A stretch of DNA of 63,611 bases, filler included, from Dimargaris cristalligena (lineage: Eukaryota), in assembly GCA_003614675.1 (NCBI GenBank). It is 6 parts of 6 records of this genome, joined end to end, with 100 filler letters (N's around TTAATTAATTAA, not from the genome) between each part and the next. Parts side by side here need not be neighbours in the genome. Positions count along the whole stretch, not along the records: positions 31,908 to 42,426 come from ML003174.1; 5 more parts are not named here. One strand, 5' to 3'. Numbering within the stretch: position 1 is the stretch's first letter; each line of letters opens with the position of its first letter. The position numbers and the translations under genes were made by a program. Under the pieces are notes generated by a model. It did no database searches and was not told the DNA's origin. It worked only from the letters and a program-made list of their open reading frames with translations. Positions 10,645 through 53,135 of this stretch are shown one piece after another.

Positions 10645-10668
10645 ATATGGAAGAGCACACCGAACCGA

Positions 10669-21184: not shown

Positions 21185-21284
21185 NNNNNNNNNNNNNNNN
21201 NNNNNNNNNNNNNNNNNNNNNNNNNNNNTTAATTAATTAANNNNNNNNNNNNNNNNNNNNNNNNNNNNNNNNNNNNNNNNNNNN
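21185..21284. other. Artificial contig linker
   Basis: N44-TTAATTAATTAA-N44. Confidence 0.97.
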
Positions 21285-21348
21285 CATTATTGTCTTTTCT
21301 ACTCTGATAGTCCGCGATTAGTCCTTCGACAACCCCTTCTCCTTCATC

Positions 21349-24300: not shown

Positions 24301-26400
24301 TCCCGGCTCGTCGAAGAATACCAGGTCCGGGTGGATGACGAAATCCGCGTAACCTGGGTGGACGACGAAGTGGCTCGGCTCTACCGGGACTCCCCCGAAG
24401 CCCACGAAGCCTTTTCCCAGCTTCTACCGGCCCAGCGCTATTGTGTTTCCATAGGCCGGGTCTTACAGAATGCCCTGGCGGAATACGCCGGGGTCGGGAA
24501 AGCCGTTCGATCCATTTGCCACCATCCGTTACAGCCCCTCCTATCCGAAGACGTGGCGGCCCGCTACATAGAACGGGCTTTCGTTAATATCACCAACGAC
24601 GTAGGCGTGGACGTCAACCTAGCCCTCCAATTCCCCCACCACGCCTCGGCGCTCCAATATGTAGCTGGGTTGGGTCCGCGTAAGGTGACCAGTTTCCTGA
24701 AACGGTTGGAGGCCACCTCGGGCAGTCGTCTAGACTCCCGAGCCGGCCTGATCCTTAACCAGGTGGTGACCCGAGTCATCTTTATGAACTGTGCCAGTTT
24801 CCTGCGGGTCGTACCACCGGAGTACGATGTACTGGATGATACCCGTATCCACCCCGAGGATTACGAACTGGCCCGTAAAATGGCCACGGATGCGCTGGAA
24901 GTTGAAGTGGAAGGCGATCCCGATGACGACAACCCCTCCCTGCACGTCGAGGAGCTTATGCGGAGTGACCCGGAGAAGCTGAACGAACTGCTATTGGAAG
25001 ACTACGCCCAGGAACTGGAGAAACAACTCAAGCAGCCGAAACTGGAGGTCCTCCGGGGCATCAAGCGGGAACTGCAGCACCCCTTCGCCGACCACCGGGC
25101 CGAATGGACGGCCCCTACCGTGGACCGGGTGTTCACTATGCTGACTGGCGAAACCGATCTCACCCTCTGGCCTAACCAGGTGGTGGTGGCGGTGGTCCAG
25201 CGCGTACGGGAACGGTTCGCCATGTGTAAATTGGACTCGGACCTCGATGGGTTCCTACCCATCAGCCGAGTGATGGACGAACGGATCGACCAAATTTCGG
25301 ACTACCTCGTGGAGGGACAGGCCCTGCCCTGTGTCGTCGTGCAGGTTCACAAGGACAAATGTTCGGCGGACCTTTCGACCCGCGATTCCGACCTGGCCCA
25401 GGCCCGCCAATGGAACCGCGAATTCCGACCCGAACTGGATCGCTACTTCGATCGGGAAGCCGAGCGGCAACTCCTGGGTCAACAGGAACGCGAGGAGCGG
25501 CGCCGCACTATGGGCCCCAACGGAGGGGGCTCCGGTCGTCCCAACCGAATGATTAACCATCCGCTATTTAAGCCTATGCGTTCCCGAGAAGCCGAGGCCT
25601 ATTTGGACAATCGTCCGATCGGTGATGTGGTTATCCGACCCTCCTCCCGGGGCAATGATCATATTGCCATCACCTGGAAAGTGTGCGACGGGGTGTACCA
25701 ACATGTCGACGTTAAAGAGGAGGATAAAGAGTCCGACGCTGCGGTGGGCCGTCGCCTACGGGTGAGTCGGGAGGATTGGTACTCGGACCTGGATGAATTG
25801 CTGGCCTCCCACATTGAGCCCATGGCCAAACGGGTTGAACAAATGCTCGAGCACCCCAAATACGAACCCAAAACCTTGGACGAAGTCAGCCTCACGCTCC
25901 GGTCGTCCTGTAATTCTAAACAAAAGGGGGATTACGCGTTCATTCTGTGTGCCTCCCGTCCGGGTTGGTTCGAACTGGTGTTCATGTCGTCTCCCCAGGC
26001 GCCGGTAAAATCCTGGAAGGTCCAGGTGTGCCCGAATTCGTACAAACTCGGGGAGACCGCCTACACCAGTGTCGGGGAACTTATCAATGGATTCAAACGT
26101 ATGCAAATGAACTTGAGTCGGGCCGGTGGGGGATCGGGACCGTCGGGTAGTAGTCACCACAGTTCCTCACGGCCGGCGAGTGGCAGTGGTAGTAGCTACC
26201 ATCGCTCGTCGTCCAGTTCCTACCATCCCCAGTCGTCTTCCAGTCGGCCCAGTGGATCGTCTTCATCAGCATCGTCCCACCGGGACACGGACCGGTATGG
26301 TTCGTCGTCATCGTCATCCGATCGGTACCGCAACCAGTGGGACCGTGAGCCTACCCGCCATTCCGTTGGTCGTTCGTCATCATCATCCGGTTGGAATTAA
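21349..26400 (+). CDS. SPT6: Transcription elongation factor / histone chaperone Spt6
   Basis: 1683-aa intronless ORF. Acidic N-terminus, LKDIFEPAEL..MTDRDNIIRARDIPERMQ, YqgF-like domain and HhH (GLGPRK), LDDTRIHPEDYELARKMATDALE, S1 domain, tandem SH2 (VIRPSSRGNDHIAITWKV), Ser-rich tail. Confidence 0.98.
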   Translation: MSNADFSDDLPNDDLPQPPPRKVAGKRPVSYSSYPPPPRSHSSASGSEEGSGSDVDSEEEEDDDDEAAVSEMRQSGFIVDDEDEDEEDDLNHRSRHHKKRHHRERSPPRDQSHSPVRPRATTDRSRSASPRSDEGSEPSDRERDGGRHRHKKRRKKGYTSEEEQLDDEDLALMEENLGYSSHARPAENKLRRLQRGRGSAAAHREPREREEDLSRMFDEEEDVPRDSGRARGYGSDEDRVGGHSAYRRSSAGRSNYHHDEMEDFIANEDEDEDDGYGRGRSVGHGDREEIVFDDENDLDQDELPAGLDDEAVGDYRRTVSSKSRAAMASMIPDSIGQGLDPETWQNLFEVFGDGTEYDFALEVAPPAAPGRRGARAVGGLHDGDDGYGGDMGDGDFPEVQLKDIFEPAELEHKLMTDRDNIIRARDIPERMQIQMEVLTPYSASTNDDYDDEGTDSARRGAKFSMSRQLTDQEVEEQTEWVLQHLRQPQHEHQLMEYTAAVINVCRFIGQDFLEVPFIAANRQDYLMYTHQAMSDSLADGQDSRQAILNRDDLWSLFDLDIKFRTFVERKHEVAELVRKLERMVPTTQTPESDTYPLSYIHRILEQIQSVEEVHDLVEYLHLIYGGHFSRLRLRNGNPSTRGLDNDLEDLSLGRAENGPSGLKRPQKHVLYEKTRRSPVAAFAARAAMSSQHFATNYCEQNMQYFPESPSEGIEELAAKFISSEFGSTITVSKAAKAMLALEIAYDPLIRRQVRMVAQYCTVVSVEPTRKGEFAIDNLHPYYPFKFLRQKPVAELTESGQFLSILKGEQDGLLSVHIGFPPSSNILDAMIKFYESTYVSETAQKWNAFRREILQMAYKEYLLPLVEKYSREWLRSKAEEWAGRQVQAALERKLNVKPCLPYRMKEGQCPRVLSLTSVEGKNARDCPVMWAMLDSKGQLVESGVIADLRDPDNAKLLMGLLEKRQPDVVGIAGSNLATKRMFEDVSRLVEEYQVRVDDEIRVTWVDDEVARLYRDSPEAHEAFSQLLPAQRYCVSIGRVLQNALAEYAGVGKAVRSICHHPLQPLLSEDVAARYIERAFVNITNDVGVDVNLALQFPHHASALQYVAGLGPRKVTSFLKRLEATSGSRLDSRAGLILNQVVTRVIFMNCASFLRVVPPEYDVLDDTRIHPEDYELARKMATDALEVEVEGDPDDDNPSLHVEELMRSDPEKLNELLLEDYAQELEKQLKQPKLEVLRGIKRELQHPFADHRAEWTAPTVDRVFTMLTGETDLTLWPNQVVVAVVQRVRERFAMCKLDSDLDGFLPISRVMDERIDQISDYLVEGQALPCVVVQVHKDKCSADLSTRDSDLAQARQWNREFRPELDRYFDREAERQLLGQQEREERRRTMGPNGGGSGRPNRMINHPLFKPMRSREAEAYLDNRPIGDVVIRPSSRGNDHIAITWKVCDGVYQHVDVKEEDKESDAAVGRRLRVSREDWYSDLDELLASHIEPMAKRVEQMLEHPKYEPKTLDEVSLTLRSSCNSKQKGDYAFILCASRPGWFELVFMSSPQAPVKSWKVQVCPNSYKLGETAYTSVGELINGFKRMQMNLSRAGGGSGPSGSSHHSSSRPASGSGSSYHRSSSSSYHPQSSSSRPSGSSSSASSHRDTDRYGSSSSSSDRYRNQWDREPTRHSVGRSSSSSGWN

Positions 26401-31807: not shown

Positions 31808-31907
31808 NNNNNNNNNNNNNNNNNNNNNNNNNNNNNNNNNNNNNNNNNNNNTTAATTAATTAANNNNNNNNNNNNNNNNNNNNNNNNNNNNNNNNNNNNN
31901 NNNNNNN
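31808..31907. other. Artificial contig linker
   Basis: N44-TTAATTAATTAA-N44. Confidence 0.97.
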
Positions 31908-32648
31908 GCTAGTAGCCCGCTTGGCCATGCCCAATGCCCCGCCTACCATTAGAAGCCTATCCCCAAGACTCTTAATGGACTAAGAGTGGTTAATTTGGGT
32001 GACATTCAATATTAGGATAATGTCCCCCTCACAGGCTGGAGGTGTATAACTGGCACCTGGACAAGTGTGACCAGAATGCCAAGTGGTGCAGACAAAAGGG
32101 CGCCCATTCACCAAAGTACCCCCCCCTTCCCTCCAGTGAATTTCCCCCCGGGTAGCCACTTGAAGATTTTTTATGCTACTACTAAAAGCTGCTGTGATTG
32201 GCAAGCAAATGTATTTGAGCAAAAGGGTATTGTACTACATTACCCTATGGTCAGCTCCAGTTAACGAGAAATGGCCAACTGGTATGCCAACTATTTACGA
32301 TGTGGTAGCTATACCTCTTCCACCTCCTTGGTATATAGTTGAACAGCCCAGAGATGTCTGTGTAGAATATGCGACACGGATGGAGGAGCCAGTGGATACA
32401 GGGGTGGTGGATGGTCTTAGGCTATTCACTCGACCACATGGAGATTAGCCTTCACTGTCATACAAACTGGGTCTGTATCTCCTTTGGCCTAAGTCCGCAA
32501 TATATGATACAGTGCCCATATGACACATACAAGTCACTATCCTAACTTACCAATGGCTTAGCTATACCCGAAATAAAGTTAGCACTATATCTGGGCAAAT
32601 TACTACTACGGGATACGTATGTCAAAATGGTTGTGAATAGTCAAAAGT

Positions 32649-32792
32649 ATATGGGTGAAGTTCAGCTTGGTTGTATAAGGTTTTAACCGATATGTGTATG
32701 GGAAAATTGGTGGGATGTTTATTTTCAACCAGTAGTACCTGCCTCATCAAATGGATTTTTCGTTATACAGCTTGGATGAACTTCTCCCATAT
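32649..32792. mobile_element. MITE-like element, 144 bp, ~30-bp imperfect terminal inverted repeats
   Basis: Left end ATATGGGTGAAGTTCAGCTTGGTTGTATAA; right end (reverse complement) ATATGGGAGAAGTTCATCCAAGCTGTATAA. Homologous copies occur on other contigs. Confidence 0.8.
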
Positions 32793-33384
32793 GTGTATAT
32801 GTTTATGGGGGGGGGTATGTTAGAGATCAGCAGGTATATTGGGGGGCTTGGGTCTTGGGGTAAACTAATATCCACTTGGTCTATATTTCCACTAACTCCA
32901 AATCCCCATGCCGTCTGACTATGCAGGCGGTGGGAAGGAGAGGGAGCTGAGGAGGTTGTACGAATGATCTACCATTGTCCTTAGGTAATGGGATACTCCG
33001 AACCATTATCTAGGAAAAGGTATCTGTTACTCATGACCAACGCCGGTGGGTACTCCAGGGTTTTATGCATATCTCTATAATGTATTTTTAGGTGCTATTG
33101 ATTTGCCGATCAAAACAATTCTCAAATAGAGCATCTACCCTGAAATTCCTTTGAGTTTAGGATCAATAAAGAGAGCGTAATGAGACCGCGAAAAACCAGG
33201 TGTGGCCGCCAACCTAGCTATGCACTAGCTCGGAGGTAGGAAAGGCGCCACCATTATTTTGTATCACATACTAACACCAATAGTAGCAATGTCTCGTCTG
33301 GGATGATCCGACTTGCCTGTAAAAGCATCGTCAGCAGGTAGTCGATGAAATATCATCGCCGATTTACTCAGTACCTGGCTGGCC

Positions 33385-33792
33385 ATGCTCGTTACCTTCG
33401 TGGCTGTAGCCTTGATCAATAACTCCACCGCTTTGCCCCTACCTTCGACCGGTCCTACTTCGATTTCCATGGACGGTTCATTGCCGACTCTTCAAAAACG
33501 AGAGCCCCTCTTTGGAGCACTTACAATGATTGGTAGGGTGGCCAAAGCCGAGTTTAGCTTCGCCAAAAAAGTGGTATCTGGTGGCAGTAGCGGCGGCGAA
33601 AAAAATAATTGCGCTCCCCCCACCCCTTCTACCCGCCAACTGATATATATATTATGTTCACAAGCTAATGCTTCCTGGGCGTTTCCTTTAGCAATCGTCA
33701 TTTCTTTCTCACTCGATATTTTTCTATTTCTATTTTTGTTATTTCTATGTTTCGTACATCATTGCCTTCCTCCTTTCACTTTATTCTCCTAG
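33385..33792 (+). CDS. Small secreted prepro-peptide (signal - pro - KR-EP - cationic amphipathic peptide); 3' end uncertain
   Basis: MLVTFVAVALINNSTA|LPLP...LQKR|EP|LFGALTMIGRVAKAEFSFAKKVVSGG. The frame past ~33610 looks like T-rich 3'UTR. Confidence 0.55.
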   Translation: MLVTFVAVALINNSTALPLPSTGPTSISMDGSLPTLQKREPLFGALTMIGRVAKAEFSFAKKVVSGGSSGGEKNNCAPPTPSTRQLIYILCSQANASWAFPLAIVISFSLDIFLFLFLLFLCFVHHCLPPFTLFS

Positions 33793-34485
33793 GGTGATCA
33801 CACACGGTAGTTTGCATTTTATCTCTAGAATACATTGACTGCGCGGCTCTGTCACTTCGTTAACACTATTTCTATTAAAGGCATTACAATCTAACTCAAA
33901 CCCCATTAGCGATGGGCAGGGTATTTTTCATGCGACCTAATGTACTGTATTTACGATTACAAGTGGCGAGAGAAGTTGGCGGGAGGGCGCTTCGTAGTGC
34001 ATGTGCCCCAACCTGGGTGCATGTCCTACCTGTAGGTATACACGAACAACCTTAGCGGCACATTCATAGAAATGGGAGACCCCCACTCACCTATAAACGG
34101 TATTTCTACGAATATTCGATAAGCAAAAAAAAATAGGGAAAGAGGGGGGGAGTCCCTACGTTTTGCCGGAAATGCACAACTCTGTATAAGCGGATAATTC
34201 GCCCACCCAGGCCGATGTCATTCCGTGACATTTTTTGATTTTTTAGTGGCTAGTTCCAGCCTATGTAAGGTATATTCTAATGTACGACACCACCGGGTTA
34301 TATAAAGTCTAGCCACCCGCCCCCCTTCGTTCTACATTGTTGCGTCTCTTGTTTGAACCAACAGTGGTTTTCCCAATTCTCGCTATTATTGAACTATTTG
34401 TTTTTAACCACTCTATATTTACAGTCGAGTTTAGGTGGTATTTTGATTCTCACTGCTAACTTCAGAATTCACCCTTCGGAACACC

Positions 34486-35691
34486 ATGTACCTCCCCCAA
34501 ATCGGCATTATCGGGGTAATGGTCATAAGCCATATAGCATGTAGTCCATCGGACCAGCCCCCCAATCGCAACCCAAACCAAGCCAGGCCGACTGAAGAAA
34601 TTCCGTGGCTGTATCAAATGCACCTTGACTGTATCGCCCCCGATAGCCACTGCCCAACTACTTCGACCAGCCATTTTCCTTTAGCTCAAGCTAGCCGCTA
34701 CTTCGAGTATGGTGCGAGTAACCCAAGCTCCAACCCACCGTTGAATACTAGGTCTATTGACCCGGTTCCTTATCCATGGCCCGTACCTGGTGTTCCATTA
34801 GTCCCCTCCTCCCTGGAACCGATCCCACCCCGCTCCCTATCCAGGGCCACTAGCCATTATACGCCTGCTGGGGTAGTAAGGGATAGCCGGCCACCTAACA
34901 ACGGCCTAGCCGGTAGAGACGACCCCTTATCCCACAGGGCTCCTATCCAACCTCAAAGGGTCAATACCGGGTCGGGCCAAGGCGCCACCAGGTTAACACG
35001 GAACCCAGTTGGCCCTTTTTTCCCAATCGATCCAACCGTTCCCTCCTCCTCCTTCGTCTTATCCCCCCCCTCGTCCTCCTCTGAAGCCGCATCCTCCTCC
35101 GCCCTGTCCACCACTATACCAGTCCAACCAAGCCCCTACCACTGTCAATTATGCTCCCGCCCATTCTACCGGGAAGAAATCTTCCGTCGTCACATGGATG
35201 AGCACCAGTACGGGTTACTGACTCACCACTGTCCACACTGTAATGGCCAGTATTCCGACCCGGGTCAACTCAAGCAGCACCTTAAAACCCATCGCATGCT
35301 GACGTGCCCCGAGTGTTCCAAGGAGTTCAGGCTAAAATCGGGTTTTGCCATTCATCGATCACGCCAGGCCTGCCGGAAGGTCAAAACCTGTGCTTTTTGT
35401 GGGGAAACTTTCCGTACCACCGTGGGCCTGAATCGCCATCGGACCCAATGTGCCCTGAGCCCCGAAACCAACAATTGGTGTCCTAACTGCGACCAAGATT
35501 TCCCAACTAAGCTGAGTTTGGAAACCCACCTCTACCGGAGTACTGATACACAACAATCCAACGCGTGTGGTCTCTGCAATGCCCGGCTGGACAATCCCTG
35601 TTTACAGGCCATCCACTTGGGCAACTGCCCGTGGCTTCAAGAAGCTAGACAGGAGTTATATTTAACTGGGGGGTTTCGAAAACAACAATAA
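34486..35691 (+). CDS. Signal-peptide-bearing protein with a Pro/Ser-rich linker and six C2H2/C2HC zinc fingers
   Basis: N-terminus MYLPQIGIIGVMVISHIACS|P. Fingers: CQLC..HMDEH, CPHC..HLKTH, CPEC..H..C, CAFC..H..C, CPNC..H, CGLC..H..C (35137-35628). TATATAAAG at ~34299. Confidence 0.85.
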   Translation: MYLPQIGIIGVMVISHIACSPSDQPPNRNPNQARPTEEIPWLYQMHLDCIAPDSHCPTTSTSHFPLAQASRYFEYGASNPSSNPPLNTRSIDPVPYPWPVPGVPLVPSSLEPIPPRSLSRATSHYTPAGVVRDSRPPNNGLAGRDDPLSHRAPIQPQRVNTGSGQGATRLTRNPVGPFFPIDPTVPSSSFVLSPPSSSSEAASSSALSTTIPVQPSPYHCQLCSRPFYREEIFRRHMDEHQYGLLTHHCPHCNGQYSDPGQLKQHLKTHRMLTCPECSKEFRLKSGFAIHRSRQACRKVKTCAFCGETFRTTVGLNRHRTQCALSPETNNWCPNCDQDFPTKLSLETHLYRSTDTQQSNACGLCNARLDNPCLQAIHLGNCPWLQEARQELYLTGGFRKQQ

Positions 35692-38600
35692 TAATAACTA
35701 TAGAGTGGCTCATAATAGAAAATTGGCAATTATAGTAGTAAGAGAGATGCGCCATTAAACTTTGCAAAATACTTAATGTATGACTAAAGTTAACGTATGA
35801 CATAAACTATTATTTAATTAGAAGTGCGTAAATGCTGTGTTGACTGGGTTCATCACTCTTAATCCATCAAGAGTTCCAGGAATGGGATTCTAGCACTAGC
35901 CGAGAGGGGCGCGGGGTCAGTGTGCGAGCATCAGCGGCAGGGTACTCGGATCCTAACTAATGATTTGACCGAACTTAAAGCCACAATATACTAGAACCTG
36001 ATAACCCTATCAGTACAGGTTGGAGCAGTGACAGCCCGTTGGTAAATGTAGATCTCTGGGAAAAACTCGCACTCAGCAAGGACGATTCTAGCCTGGACTT
36101 CAGGCAGGGACAACTGGACAACTGGGTATAATGCAGGGGCCCCTCTAGTACGTAGTGGATAGGGCACGACAAATGGGCTTGGGTCTAATGCCAATGCGGA
36201 TCAGATAATACCCGGGACCGGGGAAAAACTAATGCTAAACCTGAATAGGGTATGACTACTTGTCTTAATGGAGAGAATACCTGTCAGGTATTTATTTAAA
36301 TAGTAACTAATAGCAATGCGCATAAACATAGCGACCAACTGATACCACTATGGTACTAGAATACTCCAACGGGCAGTTATAAATAATGGATATAATTTAC
36401 TAGAGGAATATGCAAAATAGTGAAGGTCACGAATAATTGCAACTAGGGGGATACCAATGTTGGGAATGCACCCCAACTTTCTATAATTAAGACGTGTTCT
36501 TAATAGAATAATGGATTTTAAATTATGGACCCAGACTACTGAAACATCAGTCTGGGAGGGAAGGGCAAATATTGACCTCTGGTGGTGGCGTTCACATTTT
36601 CCAAAACTAAAGTAGTTTGGCTAGGGTACGCTTTAAAGGTTTAAGCAGACCCAACCACAAAGCCAGTATAGTTGATGATGTGGCCAACACCTGTTCCATC
36701 ATTCCACAGCAACTACTGTGGACCATCACATAACTAACAGAAAGACCTCATTAAAAAAACACATCCTCAATTGATATTACACGGCTCTCTTGTCTATAGT
36801 TGACTAACTACGACTTCCCAAAACCCCTTTCATCACATAATATGTGCATTGGTCGAATAATGATTTATTATCAAAGTGGTTTAGTGTCTCAATCCTTCCG
36901 GTCCCGACATTAATAGTACACTGGGAATATATTATTTGGAAGCCCCAAAGAAAAACAAAGTGCCCTCAACCCCTACACTCTTACCTACAAAGGACATCTG
37001 GATATAGAGAGCTAATGCTACAACAGCTCCGGCTGCATAAAGAAGTAGTATTCAGTTGGCAAAGAAAAATAGTAAGAAAGGTTCCGAAGGAGAACCAAGA
37101 GGAAAATTCCTCTTCGAAGAAGAACTACTGCCGTACAATTCTCTTCCCGGTCTTTACTATCGCCTTTTTGACCCCCGGGCGAAACTTTGAGCCTTTTCGG
37201 TGATTTTTTGCGTCTTGGTCTTGGGAATGTTTTTACTGGCTGGACCACCCAGCATTAGGCCCAATTTTTTGTCCACTACAAACTTAGCAGATTTGTATAA
37301 TTGATAGCGGTGAGTTAGGTGGGGAACTGATGGTCCCGTTAGGTCAGATGCACAGGGCCAACACTGTCCTAGAACAAGAGTGGCGGCTGGAGCAATAAAA
37401 TGGCTTTAATTCGAACAACATGATAATATTGGGAAGTGGCAAACCGACTAGGTTAAATGGTGAAACAGGTTAATGATGCGGATGTCAAAGTAGCTCAATT
37501 GGGGGATGCTTGAAAAATGAATAATGTCGTATTAAAAACACCAGTAATGGATATGGGATGGTAAATGAGAAATGGTAGTTAGAGGCTAAACGGATGCTTG
37601 CTGAGGAATGATGGGAGAGCAGATGGGAGGGCTTTTATAATACTAAAAAAGGTGTGTTAGTTAGGTCTGCATACGTAGGGGAGCGGACAGCTGGCTAAAG
37701 GTTCCCTACAAGCCTATCGGCCCCCAAGACCCTAAGATAGGCCAGTATCCAAGAAATTCCTTCTTCAACGCTGGCAATGCCGATATCACAGCCATCGAGG
37801 GCCCTGATTAATTTACAAATAATCGGCCAGATTGTCCGACGGCACTGGGCAGCAGTTATTATGAGATACCTAATAAACAAATCTCGCCGTGTAACAATCC
37901 CGACCGCAAACCCGCCTTTCCCATTGCCTTTGTCTCGTTGATCCATCCATTACCAGATGTTCATTTAATTTACCTGTTGGAGATTAAGTCACATGGCCAG
38001 TGTAGCGATAGATGGGCAGCGATACGCGGCGGCGACATTATCATTATGTTATACCAAACCGAATTGTCGATCATTTTGTCAAGGCGCCTGTGAGGATAGT
38101 CGTTGGCCAAAGACTGGGGCTGGATCCAAGAAGAGGCGATTGCCAGATATTCTCTTCTGTCCCAGAGCAATGTCGTTCATGGAGTAGTCTACTACGAAAC
38201 TAAAAATAGAACTTCTATGTATCCCTTCAAATGAATTTGATAGTGGTCCCCGACTCCGCTACAGTAAGTTAAATGCGTACATTGCCCATCGTCTACACCG
38301 GGGATGTAGGGACCCGATCCAATATAAATGCGGTACTTTTTAGCCGATGCTTTAGCTACTCAGATATATTCCGCCATCAATGGCTAAAACACTTGAAACT
38401 ACCCCTGCACTATTATTCCCCATCCCCCCGTATCCACAGATTAACTCCTTCCCTTGAGATATAGGTGATGGATCGCCAAGTGCAATAGCCACAATAAGCC
38501 TCATAACAAACTCCATAGCCGACTCCCCCCCTCCAGCATAGCATAGATTGCCTAAGTTAGGGGTCTTTGCCTGCCACCGATCACCCTCCCTGGATGTAGC

Positions 38601-40000
38601 GATCCCACATGTATGAAATTAATAAAGAGATTCCCCTTATACCAAAAGGCGGTACGAGTAGCCGTATAGCCCCCAATCTAATGTGCCATTCAATCGAAAA
38701 AACTATACCCAGTATTGAAGACCCTGTTTCAGTGTGCGAATGTACGGACGGTATAGATGGTTTAAATAATATGGGCGGTGGGGTCTACAAGGCTATAGCC
38801 AAAGGAATACGGTAAACACTGTAGGGGTGTAGGGACTGGTACTGTAATGCAAGTGATTTAATATCTGTACAATAGCTATTAGCTAATACCAGAGGGTTAA
38901 GAGGAGCGACAAAGGACTGTCCGTGGTTAACGGAAACGTTTTAGTTAACTAGTATAGAGAATGGAACTCAAGTGTAGAAAGTACCCAAAAAGGTGCTGTT
39001 TTTAATGACCAAAGGGGCCGAGTATGGACGACGCGTAACTATGAAAAATGAAGCGGCAGCCCAAAAAACATTTCTGCCGAAACTACGGCCAAGGGTCATA
39101 CATCAGCGGAGATGGTGATTTGACAGGGGGTGTAAAGAAGAAGCCTCACTAACCCCTCAATTTACACCATGCGTCCCTATTTTATAGAATTACCCTTTGA
39201 ATTTTAGAATACCTTGTAGGCTAATAAACACTTTATATTATTTAATAGCCTTATTACCATTCTTCTCACTTTTTACAGCCAACTTTTTTCTGGTTGGAGC
39301 GACTCGTCCAAACAGGCTTATAATAAAATGGTTTAATTCGATATGGCATTAGTGCCTCCATTAATTGGATCTCAGCGCAGTTTAGAGAATTCAATGGGGT
39401 ACGAAAATGAGTAGCATGGTAAATTGATGTTTCCATTATAAGGGGTTATGCTACCATTTAGGCAAAAATAATAGATATACCTAAATGCCGCTTGAGAGGT
39501 TTGTTATAAGCAAAAATATTGGCGAAAGACCCTATAGAAAACAAAATAGTATAGTCGGGGCGGTGTTACATGGTATATTGATTTCCCGCCAGAGTAGTTT
39601 TTGGCTGGTCATGGCATGAATTTCAGTTTATTATAGTTTTTCGACAAGGTGTTTCTACATCTCAGAGAATGTATCGCCGCAACCCAAGGATTCGGCTAAA
39701 TGCTGTAGTCCCAGACTTGTAATAAACACACATCCCAAAAAAAAAATTGAAAAATATGACTGTGCTGAATCTAGACTAAATAGAGAATATGTGGACGTCC
39801 GTGCCCCCCCCCCACTTCATAATGCTTGGGAAAATAATAGTAGATTGTATCAAAACTAGGCTGAGGTTAAAATTATAAGGGATGGGTGATTGTCGAACTC
39901 CGTGGGGGAGGGGAGGCGAATTACCAATCCCATTTCCTTTTTTTCCTAGTCAGGCCGTGTGCTAGGTAAAATGATGAGTCGACCAAGGGAAACCCAATCA

Positions 40001-40891
40001 CTAATTGCCGATTTCCTCGGCGTTTTGGAAGTTCTTTTCCGAAGTAGCGGACTGCATACGACGAATGGCTTCCCGTTCGGTAATGATCGCGTCACTCTTC
40101 TTGAGCTGCTTCTCCTCCAAACGCAGGTTCATTTCCACATCGGAGGCGAACCGTTGGGCTCCGAAATGGTAGGCCTGGTCCTGGGCGATTTGGAGTTCCA
40201 GGTCCTCCCGGGCCCGGATCCGGTAAAACACCTCAAGCACCCGGGCGTACGCCTCCTGTTCGGTCAAGCTGCGCTTGGTCATGAGGTAGTGCTGGTGCTG
40301 GATAACATGTTCACCCGTGACCGTACCGGGGTAGCGGGGATCCTGCAGTTGGCTCCAGTCGGTCCGGTTACCGCCGCCAGGGGCATTGGCATTAGTTTCG
40401 CGCATGGTCTTAGGACGCAGCAGTTCGTGCGGGTGGTCCCGGAAGAACCGACGGCGAAGTTGGTCCTCGGGGAAGACAATGCGCGGTGGCTTAGGGGGTT
40501 TAGTTTTGAGGTGGTGGTGACGAACCGAACGCGGCTTTTGATCGGGGCGAATGAAAAAGGAGGCTGGCTTCAGCTGGGGCTGGGTGGAAGTCGACGAAGA
40601 AGAAGAAGTATTGGTGGAGGAGGAACCCTCCCCGGCCGCCGAAGCCGGACCCTTCGCATGGGACCCGCCCACGGCCGCGGCTTCCTTCATTCTCTCGGAA
40701 TGCGATTTGGTAATGGGCTCAAAGGCCAAACGGCCGGCGGTAGCGAACGCCGATGGATCGCGGACAATAGTAGGACCGGGGGGCACTTTGGTAAGGACTG
40801 GGAACCAGAGGGGGATCTCAGACCGGATTTTACCGCGCACCATGTCGAGGGCCTGCTGCCGAACACGGGTGGCGAGCTTTCTGGGCCGCAT
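40001..40891 (-). CDS. RSM25: Mitochondrial small-subunit ribosomal protein mS23 (Rsm25)
   Basis: Basic N-terminus, PLWFPVLTKVPP, PPRIVFPEDQLRRRFFRDHPHELLRPK, DWSQLQ..TGEHVIQ, EAYARVLEVFYRIR, AYHFGAQRF. Confidence 0.92.
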   Translation of the reverse strand: MRPRKLATRVRQQALDMVRGKIRSEIPLWFPVLTKVPPGPTIVRDPSAFATAGRLAFEPITKSHSERMKEAAAVGGSHAKGPASAAGEGSSSTNTSSSSSTSTQPQLKPASFFIRPDQKPRSVRHHHLKTKPPKPPRIVFPEDQLRRRFFRDHPHELLRPKTMRETNANAPGGGNRTDWSQLQDPRYPGTVTGEHVIQHQHYLMTKRSLTEQEAYARVLEVFYRIRAREDLELQIAQDQAYHFGAQRFASDVEMNLRLEEKQLKKSDAIITEREAIRRMQSATSEKNFQNAEEIGN

Positions 40892-41884
40892 TGTTGTCTG
40901 CTTTGATCAGTGGGAACGAGTAGGGGAGGGTGGATAATCAAATAGGAAGGAACGGATTCTAATGCAAGTAGGCAATAGAATGCGAGTGGGTGAGACTGAT
41001 TGATGGGTAAGGGAACGAATCAGTGAGATGGTAAAGTGAATCAACCCTATCGGTATACCATTTCTTAGGATGGGGTGGCAATGGAGAGATCAGCAGGCTA
41101 AGCACACAAAACCACTCTGGTTGAATCTCAGTTGCTATAGTCAGCCACGAAGTTGGCTTTTTAGCGTACATATCCCCCCACCACCATCCTCTGCTGGAAT
41201 AACGGCCAAAGGAGCTGTTGGTTGGCGCCATCATAATGGTATGTAAGACTTCTTTTGTCCATCCCATTTATTATATTAGCGGCATTGCCTCGCATCTTTA
41301 TCAGAAGGGGTGGATTTATAATTAATAATAAATTACCTTTGATGAAATAGCGACATCCAACTATTTTTATATTCATGGTTGTAAGCAACATCTCAAGCTT
41401 GATGTATTTTCTTATGTGTATTACATATTTATTGGCTTAAAGGGCAGTTGTACTAATGACTTTGTTAATGGTATCATACTAATACTAATTTCCGGCTGGT
41501 CTATCAGATACTGCTCTAACTCTGGATCAGGCGAAACAAACACATACAAGCCAAAGAAGCGGCCACCTAGTTACCTGACCATAATCCCCGGGACCCTTAC
41601 AATCCCAAAATTCTACCAAAACGATCCACACAATGGTGTGCCTAAACAAATTTACATAGTATCCCTCCAACATAGCCTCGTGTGCTAAATTACTGGGTCA
41701 TAAGAGGGGTATTGAAATTCCCAGTAAGTCTGGAACGCTGGACTACATAATCAATGCCCCTCTGCCTTACAACCTGTATCTGGGAATTGTGGAGTGGGGG
41801 GGGGGAGTCATATATGGTGTAGTTTACAGCCGCCAATGGCTGTTCTTAGCTGCTATATTTTTGCCTACTTTAATTGGCCACGGG

Positions 41885-42022
41885 NNNNNNNNNNNNNNNN
41901 NNNNNNNNNNNNNNNNNNNNNNNNNNNNNNNNNNNNNNNNNNNNNNNNNNNNNNNNNNNNNNNNNNNNNNNNNNNNNNNNNNNNNNNNNNNNNNNNNNNN
42001 NNNNNNNNNNNNNNNNNNNNNN
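41885..42022. other. Internal scaffold gap (N run without linker)
   Basis: N run lacking TTAATTAATTAA. Confidence 0.9.
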
Positions 42023-42426: not shown

Positions 42427-42526
42427 NNNNNNNNNNNNNNNNNNNNNNNNNNNNNNNNNNNNNNNNNNNNTTAATTAATTAANNNNNNNNNNNNNNNNNN
42501 NNNNNNNNNNNNNNNNNNNNNNNNNN
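42427..42526. other. Artificial contig linker
   Basis: N44-TTAATTAATTAA-N44. Confidence 0.97.
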
Positions 42527-45350
42527 CTGATATACAGAGTTTAACATAAAGTTAGTGTACATTATTGCGGAATCAGGACGGACTTGGGCGGGGGGGGAGG
42601 TTGCATGCGCCGGGCGAATATAATAATAGCGGACCTACCTAGAATTAGGCACTAAGGATGAGGTTAGCGACTGGCTAAAGGGGTATATAGTGTCTGGCCC
42701 AAGGCTGTCTTGGATTGGCCGCCGAAACACGAAGGGAAAGGCGGCCGAGGTTGATCCCGCCGGACCCACTGAAAGGGCAAATCGAGGCGTGGTTAACAAA
42801 GAAGTTACGGTTTTGGCAGGTTGGGTCGATTTTCTCGAGTATCCGCCAGGTGCAGTCCAGCGGTAGCCGGGGTAGTTTTGGGGTTAGTTGAGGGAGCGGC
42901 GAAGGCGCGTGGGAGACCAGGACGGCTATAAATGGCACTCGGATGATCACGCCTTTCCCAGATTCCGCTTCCGTGGTTTCCATCGAAACGGGTAACGATG
43001 GAGCCAACAGCATGTGTAGTGAAGGCCACCAGTTTTCTAGTATCCGTGCGATTACGGCCAAGTCCCGGGATTCTTGATCCAGGTAAATTAAAAGGGGGTT
43101 AAGGTGAACCCACCGGCACCTGTTTTCAGCTACCGACAGTGGCAATCGACACCTGTAGTACTTGGGGACCTACATGGCGACGCATGCCACGAAAGGGTGG
43201 CAATAGGCTTGATGACCCTTTCAAGATTGGTTAAAAGTAACCGAAACATTACTGTGGGTGGTTCGCAATGGGGGGGACATATTCGACGTCATGGTGCAGT
43301 AGAAATCCAAGCCTTGCTGCACTCGGTGGGACCCTTACCGGTCTTAGGAGGGAAGCACTGGAAGGGGCGGGACCCGACACCCGCGGTAAAACTATAATCA
43401 GAACCCGTATGGACAATGTGCCAAGTGTATACGAAGTGCCGAAAACACGGCTATTGGCGATGTCTGGGGTTCGGGTAGCTGGGGGGGGTGGAATGCTGGG
43501 TGTGCTGAATATTGGGAAAGGTTGCAGCTGGTGTCGGCTGTCTGGCCAATTTTACTGAACCCGTTGGATCGTGTCGCCGCCCGCACTAGGCCTGGACAAC
43601 CGATGGGGGGATTTGGGCAGCAATCTTGGACATTATTTCCTTCAGGTTAGAATGATAAGCAGACCATACGGCAAGCCCACTTGGTGCATGCTGGTTAGGA
43701 GGGCCCTGTGTCACATTTGACCGGGGAATATTCCCAGACCGGAAACAGTTAAGCTTTTACCTGCACGGCCTGAGGTGAAACATATGGGGAAAGGGCAGCT
43801 CGACTGTATAAGATTTGGGATGAAATGAAAACGGGAAGATGGTTGCGGGGGGCCTTTTTATCCAGTACGACCCGCCTCCAGAGTAACCAGGCCTTTTGGA
43901 GACACGGTCGGGGACTTTACCTACCCTCATTTTAAGGGCGCAGTCCAAGGTTTCCCCACCACGAGAATAACGGGGTCCAAGAGCTCCTCAGTAATGGAGG
44001 GAATGGTCTGGGGCTAACCCTCACTCAAAGGTCTGTTCCGATCGACCTTCTGATAAGTCAGCCTGAGGAGATTGGCCTAGGGTATTTGAAGGGAAATTAC
44101 GGAGAACCCAGTGTCGATCAACGAACGGGTGGAACGGGCAACAAAAGGGGGCTGCTGGCTGAGCGGCAATCAACACCCCCCCCCCATGTCACTGCTACTG
44201 GGGGGGATAGTCCCCAATTGCATGAGGCTCGCTAAGGCCACATCTAATACTGCTGTTCGGTTAGCCAACTGAATTGCCATGAGGCTGGTAGAGGAAGGGA
44301 TTTTACTAACCCTCCCCCCGCCCTTGGCCGCCTAATTGAGCCAGTTGGTAAAGTAGGATTCAGGCCCATCTATTCATTGAATTCAAAGGTGGAATTATTG
44401 GTCAATATCAGAAAAAACGATGTCACCGACAGACTGGTTTATATGGCATTAGGCGGGAAAGATTGTTATTATTGAATCAAACACTGGGTAGGACAGGCCC
44501 AAAGGCGGTGCAGCGTTGGAGTCGGAGCACACCAGTGAGCACCCCGGGCAGCGTGCCACAAGCCGTTTCATTGGCGTGGCGATTGGCTAATCATCGGCCA
44601 GCCCCCCGATTCCGGCCCATCACACCCCTCTTCTTTGGATGGACGAGGAGGGGAATAGCAGCCGGTTTAATCATTATAATACAGCAGCATCATCCCCTAT
44701 AATCCCCATGGGCCACAGCTGGCAAAACCCCCGGCATGTTTCAGGGGTTTGCCGTCCCTGTTTTTCATGTTGGGACCTCCTCCTTTGTGAAAAGCGCCCT
44801 CTTTTCGGCGGTCGGGATACCCATTAATCTTTGGCCCTCACGCCGAAAGGTGCTGGCCGCTGCGTGCTCCGTAAATCACAATCCCATTGGCTACTGGTCC
44901 AGGTGGCTCTCCCTACATTTGGCGGTTATAAGTCTAGGTGGCAAGGGCGGTTTTTTTCCTAGCCCATATCCCGTCTTCGGTTCGGAATGGTTTGGCCAGA
45001 GTGTACTATCGCCTAAATCAGTCACCCCGTTTGGTCTACCCCGAGTTCCTCGGCTGCAGACCTAACTCGACGAGGGTTCGGCAGATATTTTTATATAGAT
45101 GCATATCACACCATAAATATATATCCATGTTTTTATATGTATATATATATACCCCATTCCCCCTCCCTCCCAGAGTGTTTGCCGACTCGTATCGATTTTG
45201 CCGGTTTCGCCTGCCATTACCCCTGGCCACTGTGCCGCTCTATATAATATGCTTTGGCCCAACCCTTTAACTCTCTCATACCCCCCATTCACCAATATCC
45301 TGCCCCTCTAATTTAATTACCAGGACTTTTCCCCCACGTCGTCCCGCGCC

Positions 45351-48300
45351 ATGAAAATTATCCCCGCCACGCCCACTGAATACGAGTCGGAGACTCAGTT
45401 CTCCGACCCTGGGGACAGCCCCCACTCGCCCGCTCCGGGAACCGCGGTTGCTGAAACCATACCCGTGGAGCTAGTGCGCACTCTCACCATCGAGTACCGC
45501 ACCCTATCGGTCCAGCTCCAAGAGGGCATCAACTTGGACAATCCCCAGGCGCCCCTCATTAATTTCCACAAGATCGACCTCCCCGAATTGGCCAATTTAC
45601 TCTGCACCTCCGTGGACCGGGGGCTGGAGACCGAGGTAGCCCACAAGCGCCTGGACCGCGACGGCCAGAACCTCATTACCCCGCCCAAGTCCAACTACGC
45701 CCTCAAATTGGCCGGCTACTGCGTCGGCGGCTTCGGTATTCTGCTCTGGGTGGGCTGTATTATCTGCATCATTGCCTGGCGTCCCCTAGGGGACCCCCCG
45801 GACCCGACCAACCTCGGCTTGGGCGTGCTCCTTTTCATTGTCATGTTGCTCCAGACGGCCTTCAATGCCCACCAGGACTGGACCTCCGCCCGCGTAATGA
45901 AATCCATCAACAATATGCTCCCCGCCAACTGCGAGGTCCTGCGCGACGGTCTGCTCCAGACCATCCCAACCTGCGACTTGGTGGTGGGCGACCGTATCCA
46001 GATGAACTATGGCAACAAAGTCCCCGCGGATTTGCGGATCATGGAGTGTTTCGACCTCAAGTTTGACCGCTCGGTGCTCACTGGCGAAAACGACCATATC
46101 CCGGCCGCCGTCGATGCCACCAATGATAATTACCTGGAGACCCGTAACATTGCCCTCATGGGCACGCTAATCACCAACGGCAACGGCGTCGGCCTGGTCG
46201 TCGCCACCGGTGATGGTACCATCATGGGCAAGATTAGCAAGCTCACCACCCAAGCCACCAAAGTCAAGTCGACCCTTCAGGTGGAGATTCAGCGCTTCGT
46301 GGCCCTCATTGCCGGCCTAGCCTTCACCACCGCTGCTGCCCTACTCATTGTATGGGGCACCTGGCTCCGCACCACCTACCCCACCTTCATTAGCACGTCC
46401 GCCGCCCTCATTAATACCATCGCCGTGCTGGTGGCCTATGTCCCCGTGGGGCTGCCCATTGCCGTGACCTTGGCCCTCACCCTGGTGGCCCGTAAAATGG
46501 CCCAGCAGAAGGTACTGGTCAAGGACCTCATGACCGTGGAAACCCTGGGCTCCGTCAATGTCATCGCGTCCGACAAGACGGGCACTCTGACCCAGAATCG
46601 CATGTTTGTGAATGACGCGTGCGCCGGGTCCCGCGTCTGGTCCGCTGCCGACGACCGCCGCTGGTTCCCCGAGGCCACCCCCAGTTTCGCCCAGCTCGTG
46701 GCCGCCGCCCGGCTTTGCAACGGCGCCCTATTCGACCCCCAGACCCTCCATTTGCCCATCTCTGAGCGCACCATTGCCGGGGACCCCACCGACAGCGCCA
46801 TGCTGCGGTTTAGTGCCAGCTTCACCCTCAGCGAGCCCCGCATCCATGAGGCGTTCCATCAACTGCGTAAGATCCCCTTTAATTCCAAAAACCAGTGGAT
46901 GATGACCGTGGTCCAGCCCCAGAACAGCCAGTTGAAGTCCAGCCCCGTTCCTTCGGACCGCTCTCTTCCCCTGACCACAGTCCTCCCCGACGAGGACGGG
47001 AAATCCTCCCGCTCCATACCGTTTGATTCCCCGCTGGCCGAGTCCTTTGTTGAGGCTGACATATTTGGGACCAGCGGGCCGGTCCTGTTGATCAAAGGGG
47101 CCCCCGATATCCTGATTCCCAAGACCAAGTGGTACCTCAACGACAACGGATCCCTGCGGCCCTTTGACGACCAATTGCGGAGGTCCATTTGCCAACAGCA
47201 GGAAACCTGGAGCTCGAGCGGCCAGCGGGTGCTTATGCTGTGTAAGCGTCAGCTCCGCTCGGTGGATGAGCTGCCCACCGACTCGGATGATTTGGATGCC
47301 CTGGCCGGCCTGGCCCACTCCCTGTGTGTCATTGGCCTGGTCGGGATCATGGACCCCCCACGCCCCGAGATTCGGTCCGTCGTGGAGACCTGCCACCGCG
47401 CGGGGATGCGGGTTCTGATGGTTACCGGGGATTTTGCCCTGACGGCGGCGGCCATTGCCAAGCAGGTGGGTATCTTCACCAACTCCCGTATTGACACGGT
47501 GGCGGATTTGCGGGCCCTGACCGTATCCACCCGCGACTCGACCGATGGGTCGGAAACCCGGGAAGAAAAGCCGGGCGACGAAGATGACGCTCCCCACCAG
47601 GACTGCCCCGAGTATCTGCCCTTGAATGTGGCTGTCCTGCACAAGCACGACCAGTCCAAGCCCGACCGCCACCGGGACGACTCCCCATCCCCGGCTTATA
47701 AGGGACCGGACAACCTGTGCCAATTCAGCGGGTCCCTTTTGCTTTCGGGATCAGAGCTATCCGGCCTGACCAACGACCAGTGGACCCAAGTGACCCAGTA
47801 CCGGGAAATCGTGTTTGCTCGCACGACCCCCGAGCAAAAACTCCAGATTGTGCAAAAGTTCCAGGCCAACGGCGCCATCGTGGCGGTTACGGGGGACGGG
47901 GTGAACGACGCGCCCGCCCTCAAGAACGCCAACATTGGGATTGCCATGGGAGGGGGCAGTGATGTGGCCATGGAGGCCGCCCATATGGTTTTGCTCGACA
48001 ACAATTTCTCCTCCATTCTGGTGGCCATTGAAAACGGCCGACTGGTCTTTGATAACCTTAAAAAATGCATCCTCTATCTGCTGCCGGCCGGTAGTTTCGC
48101 TGAACTTATTCCGATCCTGGTCAATGTGTTCCTGGGGGTACCCCTGCCACTCAGTGCCTTTTTGATGATTTGCATTTGTGTGCTGACTGATCTACCGCCG
48201 TCCATTTCCCTCATGTACGAAGGGCCCGAGCGCGACCTCCTGACCCGTGCACCCCGGGTGCCCAACCGCGACCGTCTGGTCAATGCTAAGCTTATCCTGC

Positions 48301-48842
48301 ACGCCTACGGCTTTGCTGGTATTCTGGAAACCTTCTTCGGGCACTGCATGTACTTCCTCTACATGTCCCACTACGGCGGTTTCGGTCTGTCCGATCTCTT
48401 TCTAGCGTACGATCGGTGGACCGACGGTTACAAGGGATATACCCAGAAGGAGCTCGATGACTTTAATTTTACGGGCCAGTCGATTATGTTCGTGTCGCTG
48501 GTCATGTGCCAGTGCTTCGGGAACCTATTGTCCATCCGGACCCGTTATCTGTCGCTGTTCCAGCACCCCCCAATTAGCTGGCCCCCGTTTTCCGGCCACG
48601 ATCTCGGCGCTCGGAGGCCGGGCCATAACCCGGTCATTTTTATCAGCTGGGCCATTAGCATTGGCCTCTGCTTGATTATCATTTACGTACCGTTTGTGAA
48701 TAACGTGTTCAATACCCGGCCCATTCCCGTGGCCTTTTTCTTTATGCCCATTGCGTACGCCTTGGGCATGCTGACCCTCGACGAGTTGCGCAAATGGATG
48801 GTGCGTCGCAAGGATCCCTTTTTTACCCGGATGGCCTGGTAG
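45351..48842 (+). CDS. Type II P-type cation-transporting ATPase (fungal Na+/K+- or H+/K+-ATPase-like)
   Basis: IEYRTLS, GNKVPAD, LTGEN, SDKTGTLTQN, KGAPD, DPPR, MVTGD, FARTTPEQK, TGDGVNDAPALK, YLLPAGSFAE and C-terminal AW*. 1163 aa, intronless. Confidence 0.96.
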   Translation: MKIIPATPTEYESETQFSDPGDSPHSPAPGTAVAETIPVELVRTLTIEYRTLSVQLQEGINLDNPQAPLINFHKIDLPELANLLCTSVDRGLETEVAHKRLDRDGQNLITPPKSNYALKLAGYCVGGFGILLWVGCIICIIAWRPLGDPPDPTNLGLGVLLFIVMLLQTAFNAHQDWTSARVMKSINNMLPANCEVLRDGLLQTIPTCDLVVGDRIQMNYGNKVPADLRIMECFDLKFDRSVLTGENDHIPAAVDATNDNYLETRNIALMGTLITNGNGVGLVVATGDGTIMGKISKLTTQATKVKSTLQVEIQRFVALIAGLAFTTAAALLIVWGTWLRTTYPTFISTSAALINTIAVLVAYVPVGLPIAVTLALTLVARKMAQQKVLVKDLMTVETLGSVNVIASDKTGTLTQNRMFVNDACAGSRVWSAADDRRWFPEATPSFAQLVAAARLCNGALFDPQTLHLPISERTIAGDPTDSAMLRFSASFTLSEPRIHEAFHQLRKIPFNSKNQWMMTVVQPQNSQLKSSPVPSDRSLPLTTVLPDEDGKSSRSIPFDSPLAESFVEADIFGTSGPVLLIKGAPDILIPKTKWYLNDNGSLRPFDDQLRRSICQQQETWSSSGQRVLMLCKRQLRSVDELPTDSDDLDALAGLAHSLCVIGLVGIMDPPRPEIRSVVETCHRAGMRVLMVTGDFALTAAAIAKQVGIFTNSRIDTVADLRALTVSTRDSTDGSETREEKPGDEDDAPHQDCPEYLPLNVAVLHKHDQSKPDRHRDDSPSPAYKGPDNLCQFSGSLLLSGSELSGLTNDQWTQVTQYREIVFARTTPEQKLQIVQKFQANGAIVAVTGDGVNDAPALKNANIGIAMGGGSDVAMEAAHMVLLDNNFSSILVAIENGRLVFDNLKKCILYLLPAGSFAELIPILVNVFLGVPLPLSAFLMICICVLTDLPPSISLMYEGPERDLLTRAPRVPNRDRLVNAKLILHAYGFAGILETFFGHCMYFLYMSHYGGFGLSDLFLAYDRWTDGYKGYTQKELDDFNFTGQSIMFVSLVMCQCFGNLLSIRTRYLSLFQHPPISWPPFSGHDLGARRPGHNPVIFISWAISIGLCLIIIYVPFVNNVFNTRPIPVAFFFMPIAYALGMLTLDELRKWMVRRKDPFFTRMAW

Positions 48843-53035: not shown

Positions 53036-53135
53036 NNNNNNNNNNNNNNNNNNNNNNNNNNNNNNNNNNNNNNNNNNNNTTAATTAATTAANNNNNNNNN
53101 NNNNNNNNNNNNNNNNNNNNNNNNNNNNNNNNNNN
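53036..53135. other. Artificial contig linker
   Basis: N44-TTAATTAATTAA-N44. Confidence 0.97.

Follow-up and report, generated by a model that had tools for sequence, protein, structure and literature searches.

The zinc-finger locus at 33385-35691 of a 63,611-nucleotide stretch of DNA from the fungus Dimargaris cristalligena (GenBank assembly GCA_003614675.1; the whole stretch is called the window here) is best explained, with a probability of about one half, as an interrupted copy of a gene whose ground plan is that of a putatively secreted zinc-finger effector. In this ground plan a protein of about 255 amino acids (aa) would comprise a signal peptide, a short pro-region with a Kex2-type LQKR↓EP site (the arrow marks a cut), a Ser-rich linker and six C2H2/C2HC fingers. 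The leader would direct the protein towards secretion, with a Kex2-like protease trimming it in the secretory pathway, and the mature finger protein may then pass from haustoria into a mucoralean host and bind host DNA, as the MoHTR proteins of Magnaporthe oryzae do in rice. The window copy retains both its leader (33385-33550) and its finger block (35086-35691) intact, split by 1,539 base pairs (bp). The Dimargaritales are described as haustorial mycoparasites living mostly on Mucoromycota hosts (PMC3734964; PMC10386755), and D. cristalligena is one such haustorial mycoparasite, so the parasitic lifestyle guessed at in the original prediction for this locus is correct. That prediction had taken the open reading frame (ORF) at 34486-35691 for the gene of a secreted, transcription-factor-like finger effector. 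The architecture of leader, dibasic Lys-Arg (KR) site and six fingers does stand at the level of the family, but the ORF’s own N-terminus interrupts colinearity with the family’s other member. Judged from sequence, a secreted DNA-binding effector is plausible for the small gene family and unproven for the interrupted window copy.

The locus sits in the fourth segment of the window (31908-41884), where an ATG-to-stop ORF of 401 aa (P0001) occupies exactly the coordinates first proposed, 34486-35691 on the plus strand. Its specific relatives are two D. cristalligena proteins only, among the matches listed from a 5.8-billion-protein index and from an HMMER search of 1.84 billion representatives. 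The word-indexed searches used the 401-aa ORF, the paralogue described below and the 65-aa leader as queries, with length windows of 220-702 and 140-448 aa; the leader query matched only itself, a query that short having little power in a word-indexed database. One relative, P0002, is a 231-aa database model of the window locus, with a finger block 100% identical to that of the ORF and an N-terminus encoded from 33385, that is, 1.1 kilobases (kb) 5’ of ATG 34486. The other, P0003, is a paralogue of 256 aa whose fingers share 68% identity with those of the ORF; a strain variant of the paralogue, P0153, also of 256 aa and different at one residue, is modelled identically under a second locus-tag series. 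HMMER with the paralogue gave 17,548 matches at E<=0.001, and the best 150 listed comprise P0002 as the specific match and 149 generic multi-finger proteins at 24-34% identity. These comparisons suggest a Dimargaris-specific gene present in two copies, of which the locus is one.

The finger block of the locus contains the following features.

35086-35691, plus strand: finger block, 201 codons and a stop; 100% identity to P0002, 68% to the paralogue
35143-35205, plus strand: finger 1, C2H2 (pattern scan)
35230-35292, plus strand: finger 2, C2H2; the best Pfam stretch, residues 247-269
35305-35373, plus strand: finger 3, C2HC (H-x5-C; pattern scan)
35389-35451, plus strand: finger 4, C2HC (H-x3-C; pattern scan)
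35479-35529, plus strand: finger 5, degenerate C-x2-C-x12-H, with the fourth ligand missing at standard spacing, as in the paralogue
35566-35628, plus strand: finger 6, C2HC (H-x3-C; pattern scan)

The Pfam families zf-C2H2_4 (PF13894, 44 bits against a cut-off of 27) and zf-C2H2 (PF00096, 43.6 bits against 25.2) each match four stretches of the 401-aa ORF, and in the paralogue the same families score 38.5 and 25.9 bits, respectively, above their gathering thresholds. Of the six C2H2/C2HC fingers originally counted, five keep the strict spacing C-x2-C-x12-H-x3-5-[H/C], fingers 1 and 2 as C2H2 and fingers 3, 4 and 6 as C2HC; the sixth motif, finger 5 (CPNC...H), is the degenerate one, in the paralogue as well as here. 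A pattern scan of all six frames of the 63.6-kb window found no other canonical finger. The nearest solved structures by sequence are DNA-binding tandem arrays (Aart, E 7e-17, followed by ZBTB17, ZNF568, ZBTB24, CTCF, PRDM9 and TFIIIA), and the block is most readily read as a tandem array of the DNA-binding type. Among positions that carry Cys or His in either copy, 27 of 31 are conserved and the four changes fall on non-ligand residues, so that every zinc ligand is kept, compared with 64% identity at the other positions; the finger block has therefore been constrained, which speaks against an old pseudogene, and purifying selection has probably acted on it over most of the period after the duplication.

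The sequence upstream of the ORF contains a second block of similarity to the paralogue, which corresponds to its leader.

33345-33347, plus strand: ATG (followed by AAA), counterpart of the paralogue’s MK start, one base out of frame with the leader ORF
33364-33550, plus strand: leader block colinear with paralogue residues 7-65 (tblastn of P0003 and P0153, 66% identity, E 2e-20)
33385-33432, plus strand: signal-peptide-like segment, 16 aa long and hydrophobic over a core of 10 residues, with STA↓LP as candidate cleavage site
33433-33501, plus strand: pro-region ending in the dibasic LQKR↓EP, with the KR codons at 33496-33501

Over 62 codons the leader alignment contains one in-frame 3-codon indel and neither stops nor frameshifts. 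A TGA in frame with the leader ORF lies at 33346-33348, so the stop-to-stop frame opens at 33349. The paralogue’s leader is longer: it starts with MK, its hydrophobic core spans 22 residues, and its candidate cleavage site, SIA↓LP, comes ahead of LPTLQKREP. Small residues occupy positions -3 and -1 in both leaders. The nonapeptide LPTLQKREP is identical in window and paralogue, where the leader as a whole is 66% identical; LQKR forms residues 36-39 of the ORF with its start at 33385 and residues 49-52 of P0003, coming 20-23 residues after the signal-like segment. Fungal secreted proteins that are processed by Kex2 typically have a dibasic LxKR site behind the signal peptide. The best 10-aa Kyte-Doolittle means are 3.04 for the window leader and 2.98 for the paralogue leader, compared with 2.67 for the hydrophobic segment IGIIGVMVISHIA near the start of the 401-aa ORF; among 146 generic finger proteins taken as background from the paralogue HMMER search, none has a mean of at least 2.8. 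These values are suggestive of an upstream leader that is more signal-peptide-like than the hydrophobic segment of the ORF itself. The original description of the gene as intronless is thus not established, the homologous N-terminus lying upstream at 33385-33550; a different start or upstream exon, which had been named as evidence that would count against the prediction, appears at the level of homology and of gene models, short of that of transcripts.

Between leader and fingers the paralogue maps onto the window as two blocks, 33364-33549 and 35122-35658, with zero residues left over, and the break is marked by a short direct repeat.

33545-33550, no strand assigned: left copy of AAGCCG, the point where colinearity with the paralogue breaks
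35084-35089, no strand assigned: right copy of AAGCCG, containing the AG acceptor (35085-35086) used by P0002
33551-35083, plus strand: intervening DNA, 1,533 bp between the repeats and 1,539 bp with one repeat copy; no homologue found

Excising 1,539 bp (one repeat plus the intervening DNA) yields a single open frame of 255 codons with 166 identities to the paralogue and a BLOSUM62 score of 881, compared with 163 identities and 868 for a spliced alternative and 150 and 777 for P0002. The TATA box, ATG 34486, the IGIIGVMVISHIA segment and the 200 codons rich in Pro and Ser on which the original prediction was built all lie inside this intervening DNA. The junction fits two histories equally well: the DNA may have been inserted here with duplication of the target site, or the paralogue may have lost it by a microhomology-mediated deletion. 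An ancestral canonical intron lying exactly at the junction was considered and rejected, since GT-AG or GC-AG borders do not arise in any of the seven registers that the repeat allows. As for signs of a mobile element, the window contains no further copy of the intervening DNA, terminal repeats, whether inverted or long and direct, were not found, and no poly-A tail is visible by eye; an Rfam search of 32000-37000 returned no matches at E<=1, so there is no sign of an intron-hosted small nucleolar RNA or other RNA in that interval.

A number of observations weigh against the explanation of an interrupted effector gene, and they are best considered together with the rival explanations on which they bear. 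The signal-peptide call is a crude heuristic that combines the best-10 Kyte-Doolittle mean with the -3/-1 rule. The window leader is shortened, starting at ATG 33385, with the paralogue’s charged MK start lost through a frameshift, and the 22-residue core of the paralogue could be a membrane anchor instead of a cleaved signal. A simple pattern test detected no basic nuclear localization signal (NLS) in P0001 or P0003, that is, neither K[KR]x[KR] nor a bipartite pattern nor a run of at least three basic residues. A finger array can by itself bring about nuclear import. An AlphaFold model of the paralogue, computed from a 4-row alignment, forms six strand-strand-helix units at low confidence (mean predicted local distance difference test 48.8, predicted template modelling score 0.27). 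The family, moreover, has only two members, and these searches found no orthologues; a “system” in the sense of the original prediction is therefore not shown.

It is accordingly worth asking whether the leader is a working signal peptide at all. If it were a false positive or the product of a mis-called start, both members would be ordinary intracellular regulators, an explanation with which the absent NLS pattern is compatible and for which M. oryzae supplies a caution, in that 20 of its predicted-secreted proteins are reported to carry DNA-binding domains, half of them C2H2, and only MoHTR1-3 are described as characterized (PMC7672089; PMC10189765). We nevertheless regard it as unlikely, given a leader that is conserved at 66%, close to the 68% of the fingers, that has changed in length only by an in-frame indel, that keeps LPTLQKREP in full and that is more hydrophobic than any of the 146 background finger proteins.

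The junction and the DNA inside it raise a further set of objections. The 6-bp repeat matters for its position; as a match it is unremarkable, with about 0.6 such matches expected between the two junction windows, and it does not distinguish an insertion at this locus from a loss of the DNA in the paralogue. In addition, the frame of the 200 codons ahead of the fingers stays open to a degree far exceeding chance, which neither an intron nor a random insert would predict. The features concerned are as follows.

34299-34305, plus strand: TATATAA, 187 nucleotides (nt) 5’ of ATG 34486
34486-35085, plus strand: N-terminal 200 codons of the 401-aa ORF, open, in frame with the finger block and rich in Pro and Ser
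34501-34539, plus strand: hydrophobic segment IGIIGVMVISHIA, residues 6-18, Kyte-Doolittle mean 2.67

The 200-codon stretch has no stop in frame; its two other forward frames contain 10 and 13 stops, and its reverse frames 7, 6 and 10. Of 20,000 shuffles of each kind, only 11 (dinucleotide) and 12 (mononucleotide) were free of stops. The first 200 residues contain 36 Pro and 27 Ser, so that the composition claimed for a region of about 200 aa is borne out. The TATA box said to lie upstream is likewise present, as TATATAA at 34299; there is no ATG in the 180 nt between it and ATG 34486, which has an A at -3.

These features are what would be expected if the 401-aa ORF were, as first proposed, an intronless gene with its own TATA promoter, encoding a secreted transcription-factor-like effector with a signal peptide at residues 6-18. 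The hydrophobic segment that this explanation needs does exist, and its mean of 2.67 is uncommon for finger proteins (3 of the 146 generic proteins reach at least 2.5). Pro at position +1 of a signal-peptide cleavage site is disfavoured. The cleavage originally placed at ...ACS↓P has Pro at just that position, although IAC↓SP would be permissible instead; the segment also lacks a charged n-region and has a His and two Gly inside its core. Residues 1-200 have no Pfam match, no usable language-model atlas match and no homologue in the protein searches, nothing in the paralogue corresponds to them, and the exact 401-aa sequence is absent from all protein collections looked up. Nor do the 200 codons have a codon-usage signal: with stops excluded from the score their frame-0 advantage is gone (-0.15), in a model that has little power for lineage-specific genes here, the others of which it barely separates (+0.06 to +0.24, compared with +0.73 to +0.83 for its training genes and a null maximum of 0.31). 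An intermediate codon-usage signal seen in the first scoring of the 200 codons vanished once stops were excluded and was dropped. With a better leader upstream that is conserved as if it were coding, we consider the self-contained 401-aa effector gene very doubtful.

The open 200 codons would also agree with the 401-aa ORF being a genuine gene of greater age. In that case the window would preserve an older state of two neighbouring genes, a small secreted protein (33385-33792) followed by an ordinary nuclear 401-aa zinc-finger transcription factor, and the paralogue would be a deletion fusion at AAGCCG. Such a history accounts for the open codons without recourse to chance, and for the promoter-like TATA and the ATG-free leader that follows it; the 6-bp repeat at the junction is the expected scar of a microhomology-mediated deletion, and the Ser-rich, pyrimidine-rich tract runs unbroken across the right junction. 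It fares less well to the left, where the 81 codons past the junction (33550-33789) look non-coding, being T-rich and microsatellite-like with codon scores as low as controls, and where the open frame is only mildly unusual (119 of 5,000 shuffles). The 200 codons remain without a codon-usage signal, and the 135-aa and 401-aa products are in no collection. We think this order of events unlikely; were it true, the window gene would be no effector, and the fusion paralogue might be functional or not. A T-rich microsatellite-like array with periods of 6 and 15 lies at 33717-33753 within the intervening DNA and encodes the very hydrophobic tail of the 135-aa ORF starting at 33385.

The last group of objections concerns what the interrupted copy might make, which could be a secreted spliced form of about 231-250 aa, the 401-aa ORF from internal TATA-bearing DNA, both, or nothing. 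The in-phase donors, G↓GTTCAT at 33476 (used by P0002) and G↓GTAGGG at 33533, are both weak. The acceptor at 35085-86 consists of a long pyrimidine tract and AG, without a CTRAY motif, and would close introns of 1,611 nt (the P0002 model) or 1,554 nt (from the 33533 donor). Leaving that acceptor aside, 25 in-frame combinations of GT-AG with CTRAY give introns of 879-1,467 nt and products of 279-475 aa, none with a strong donor. One further site deserves mention.

34456-34465, plus strand: CTAAC branch-point-like sequence and CAG acceptor, 20 nt 5’ of ATG 34486, inside the open frame and in phase with donor 33533

Joining donor 33533 to the acceptor at 34464-65 would yield a protein of 457 aa; sites of the type CTAAC...CAG occur about once per kb by chance. 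A long intron would be unlike the other genes of the window, since the four confident genes of the window are uninterrupted and the sole modelled intron inspected is of about 52 nt.

The database model does not settle the matter. P0002 appears to come from a low-coverage study that used Funannotate, whose annotation is described as combining ab initio predictors with SwissProt alignments, in passages that mention no Dimargaris RNA (PMC9866270); because that pipeline is its inferred source, P0002 is not transcript evidence. Since there are two copies of the acceptor AAG↓CC, P0002 can be derived just as well from an allele without the interruption, by removal of an intron of 72 nt, and it therefore does not show an interruption in the other strain. 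The genome may be non-haploid (PMC10386755). P0002 as evidence for a long intron was rejected on these grounds.

A further possibility is that the window copy is a duplicate in decay, its start frameshifted and its sequence disrupted by an insertion of 1.5 kb, that makes no functional product and leaves the paralogue as the only working gene. The out-of-frame ATG AAA at 33345, the failure of any canonical GT-AG pair to restore exact colinearity in the seven registers and the lack of a protein model at the locus under the locus-tag series matching the window’s contigs (140-702 aa range searched) all agree with decay. A decaying gene is harder to reconcile with a finger block that is stop-free over 201 codons, keeps every ligand and is 68% identical to the paralogue, or with a leader block that retains both its frame and its KR site, and it leaves the open 200 codons unexplained; we hold it to be quite unlikely. 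Preferring an interrupted but constrained effector gene, one may go further and propose that this mycoparasite, one of the early-diverging fungi, delivers a lineage-specific, Kex2-processed six-finger protein to fungal host nuclei and so rewires transcription there, as a fungus-on-fungus counterpart of the MoHTR effectors of rice blast, and that gain or loss of the 1.5 kb at the 6-bp repeat toggles the finger array between the secreted form and a 401-aa form whose new N-terminus would come from an internal promoter, a proposal to which we would give only long odds.

The original prediction also cited two companion genes elsewhere in the window as independent cases of a signal peptide joined to fingers.

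59484-59822, plus strand: ORF of 112 aa with a signal-like N-terminus, Kyte-Doolittle 2.85, AQA↓HP
54431-54745, plus strand: small signal-like ORF, 29% identical to the ORF at 59484 and about 5 kb from it

Both do lie on another contig. The ORF at 59484, however, has a single C-x2-C-x11-H-x4-C motif at its end, of non-canonical spacing and with no Pfam finger match even at E<=5, and the ORF at 54431 runs into an in-frame stop ahead of a finger remnant that lacks the first Cys pair. Neither exact sequence is in any protein collection looked up. The two are better regarded as a small tandem pair of signal-bearing ORFs unrelated to the six-finger family, and a family-level system built on them is weak. 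Farther along, an ORF at 60921-62103 on the plus strand encodes 372 aa, is rich in Pro and Ser and has a CxxC...H...H...C motif at its extreme N-terminus without belonging to a Pfam family; in its database model, of 375 aa, an intron of about 52 nt is taken out near 61893-61944 and the C-terminal end is not the one of the ORF.

The rest of the window provides a setting for these genes. It is composed of six segments of about 10.5 kb each, joined by runs of N and not physically linked.

10545-10644, 21185-21284, 31808-31907, 41885-42022, 42427-42526 and 53036-53135: N runs between segments
21322-26397, plus strand: SPT6, 1,692 aa, a single uninterrupted ORF
45312-48839, plus strand: P-type cation ATPase, 1,176 aa, a single uninterrupted ORF
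10672-12087, minus strand: M28 peptidase, an uninterrupted ORF
40004-40906, minus strand: MRP-S25, an uninterrupted ORF

These four are the confident genes of the window (n=4), all uninterrupted. SPT6 and the P-type ATPase have a GC content at third codon positions (GC3) of 0.69-0.77 and lie in islands of 55-61% GC, with flanks and lineage-specific genes at 37-50% GC, and codon usage is very different between the housekeeping and the lineage-specific genes of the window. Stop-free frames without a Pfam match run antisense to the M28 peptidase (10597-11871, plus strand) and to MRP-S25 (39950-40906, plus strand); they are probably by-products of high GC3 and not genes. The N-terminus of the M28 peptidase is itself signal-like, with a Kyte-Doolittle value of 2.05, below every finger-gene leader on the same crude score.

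Among known systems, the closest precedent is the MoHTR set and not the transcription activator-like (TAL) effectors to which the finger protein was first likened. MoHTR1-3 of M. oryzae have been shown experimentally to be secreted C2H2 nuclear effectors (PMC7672089; PMC10189765), MoHTR3 being described as a small C2H2 protein that is secreted and combines a signal peptide and an NLS with a finger at the C-terminus, and effectors in general as typically under 300 aa (PMC10189765). The 256-aa paralogue and the 231-255-aa forms of the window locus fit that size, and the 401-aa ORF does not. The Dimargaris family resembles the MoHTRs in joining an N-terminal secretion signal, here a candidate one, to a C2H2 domain in a small protein (the 255/256-aa form), in being lineage-specific with few or no orthologues, and in being produced by a biotrophic or haustorial fungal parasite. 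It differs in that MoHTR1 and MoHTR2 have a single finger domain with basic flanks, modelled on GAGA, whereas the Dimargaris family has six tandem fingers, three of them C2HC, a KR-terminated pro-region and no basic NLS pattern, and would act on a fungal and not a plant host. Secretion, translocation and DNA binding have been demonstrated for the MoHTRs and are putative in the Dimargaris family, which is likened to them by the architecture that served to select the MoHTR candidates.

With the tandem C2H2 transcription factors the family shares finger spacing, a short-linker tandem layout and Pfam membership; unlike it, they are intracellular, none of the 146 sampled has an N-terminus as hydrophobic as the family leader, and identity to them is 24-34%. 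TAL effectors of Xanthomonas contain tandem 33-35-aa repeats with repeat-variable di-residues and are delivered by type III secretion. What survives of that comparison is the proposed functional logic, a pathogen protein that binds host DNA: the DNA-binding fold is another one, there is no homology, and the Dimargaris route would be through the eukaryotic endoplasmic reticulum and Golgi instead of a type III system. TAL-type repeats were not found, as Tandem Repeats Finder on 33300-35800 returned only the T-rich microsatellite at 33717-33753. Kex2-processed pro-proteins are matched in the signal-like segment followed by LQKR and Glu-Pro, conserved in both Dimargaris copies, but the cargo here is a finger array and not a peptide, toxin or enzyme, and its cleavage is predicted from the motif.

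Full-text literature searches found no paper that connects zinc-finger proteins with the secretomes of Dimargaris or of the Zoopagomycota. Two secretome and effector surveys (PMC9391592; PMC13188720) name neither zinc fingers nor Dimargaris in their main texts, as judged by term searches, although their supplements could list such proteins. In the literature so searched, as far as the retrieved texts go, experimental cases of secreted transcription-factor-like effectors come from one plant pathogen only, and none from fungus-on-fungus parasitism.

It is against this background that the Dimargaris family acquires its significance. If it is not secreted, the locus is merely a lineage-specific zinc-finger gene of messy structure. 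If it is secreted, the family would supply a specific candidate, simple to test, for the means by which a zoopagomycete mycoparasite might reprogramme its host, and the interrupted copy offers a natural experiment on the joining of a signal peptide to, or its loss from, a DNA-binding array. Should the 1.5 kb indeed act as a structural switch between the two forms, the locus would make visible a route by which secreted transcription-factor effectors may arise from, or revert to, ordinary regulators.

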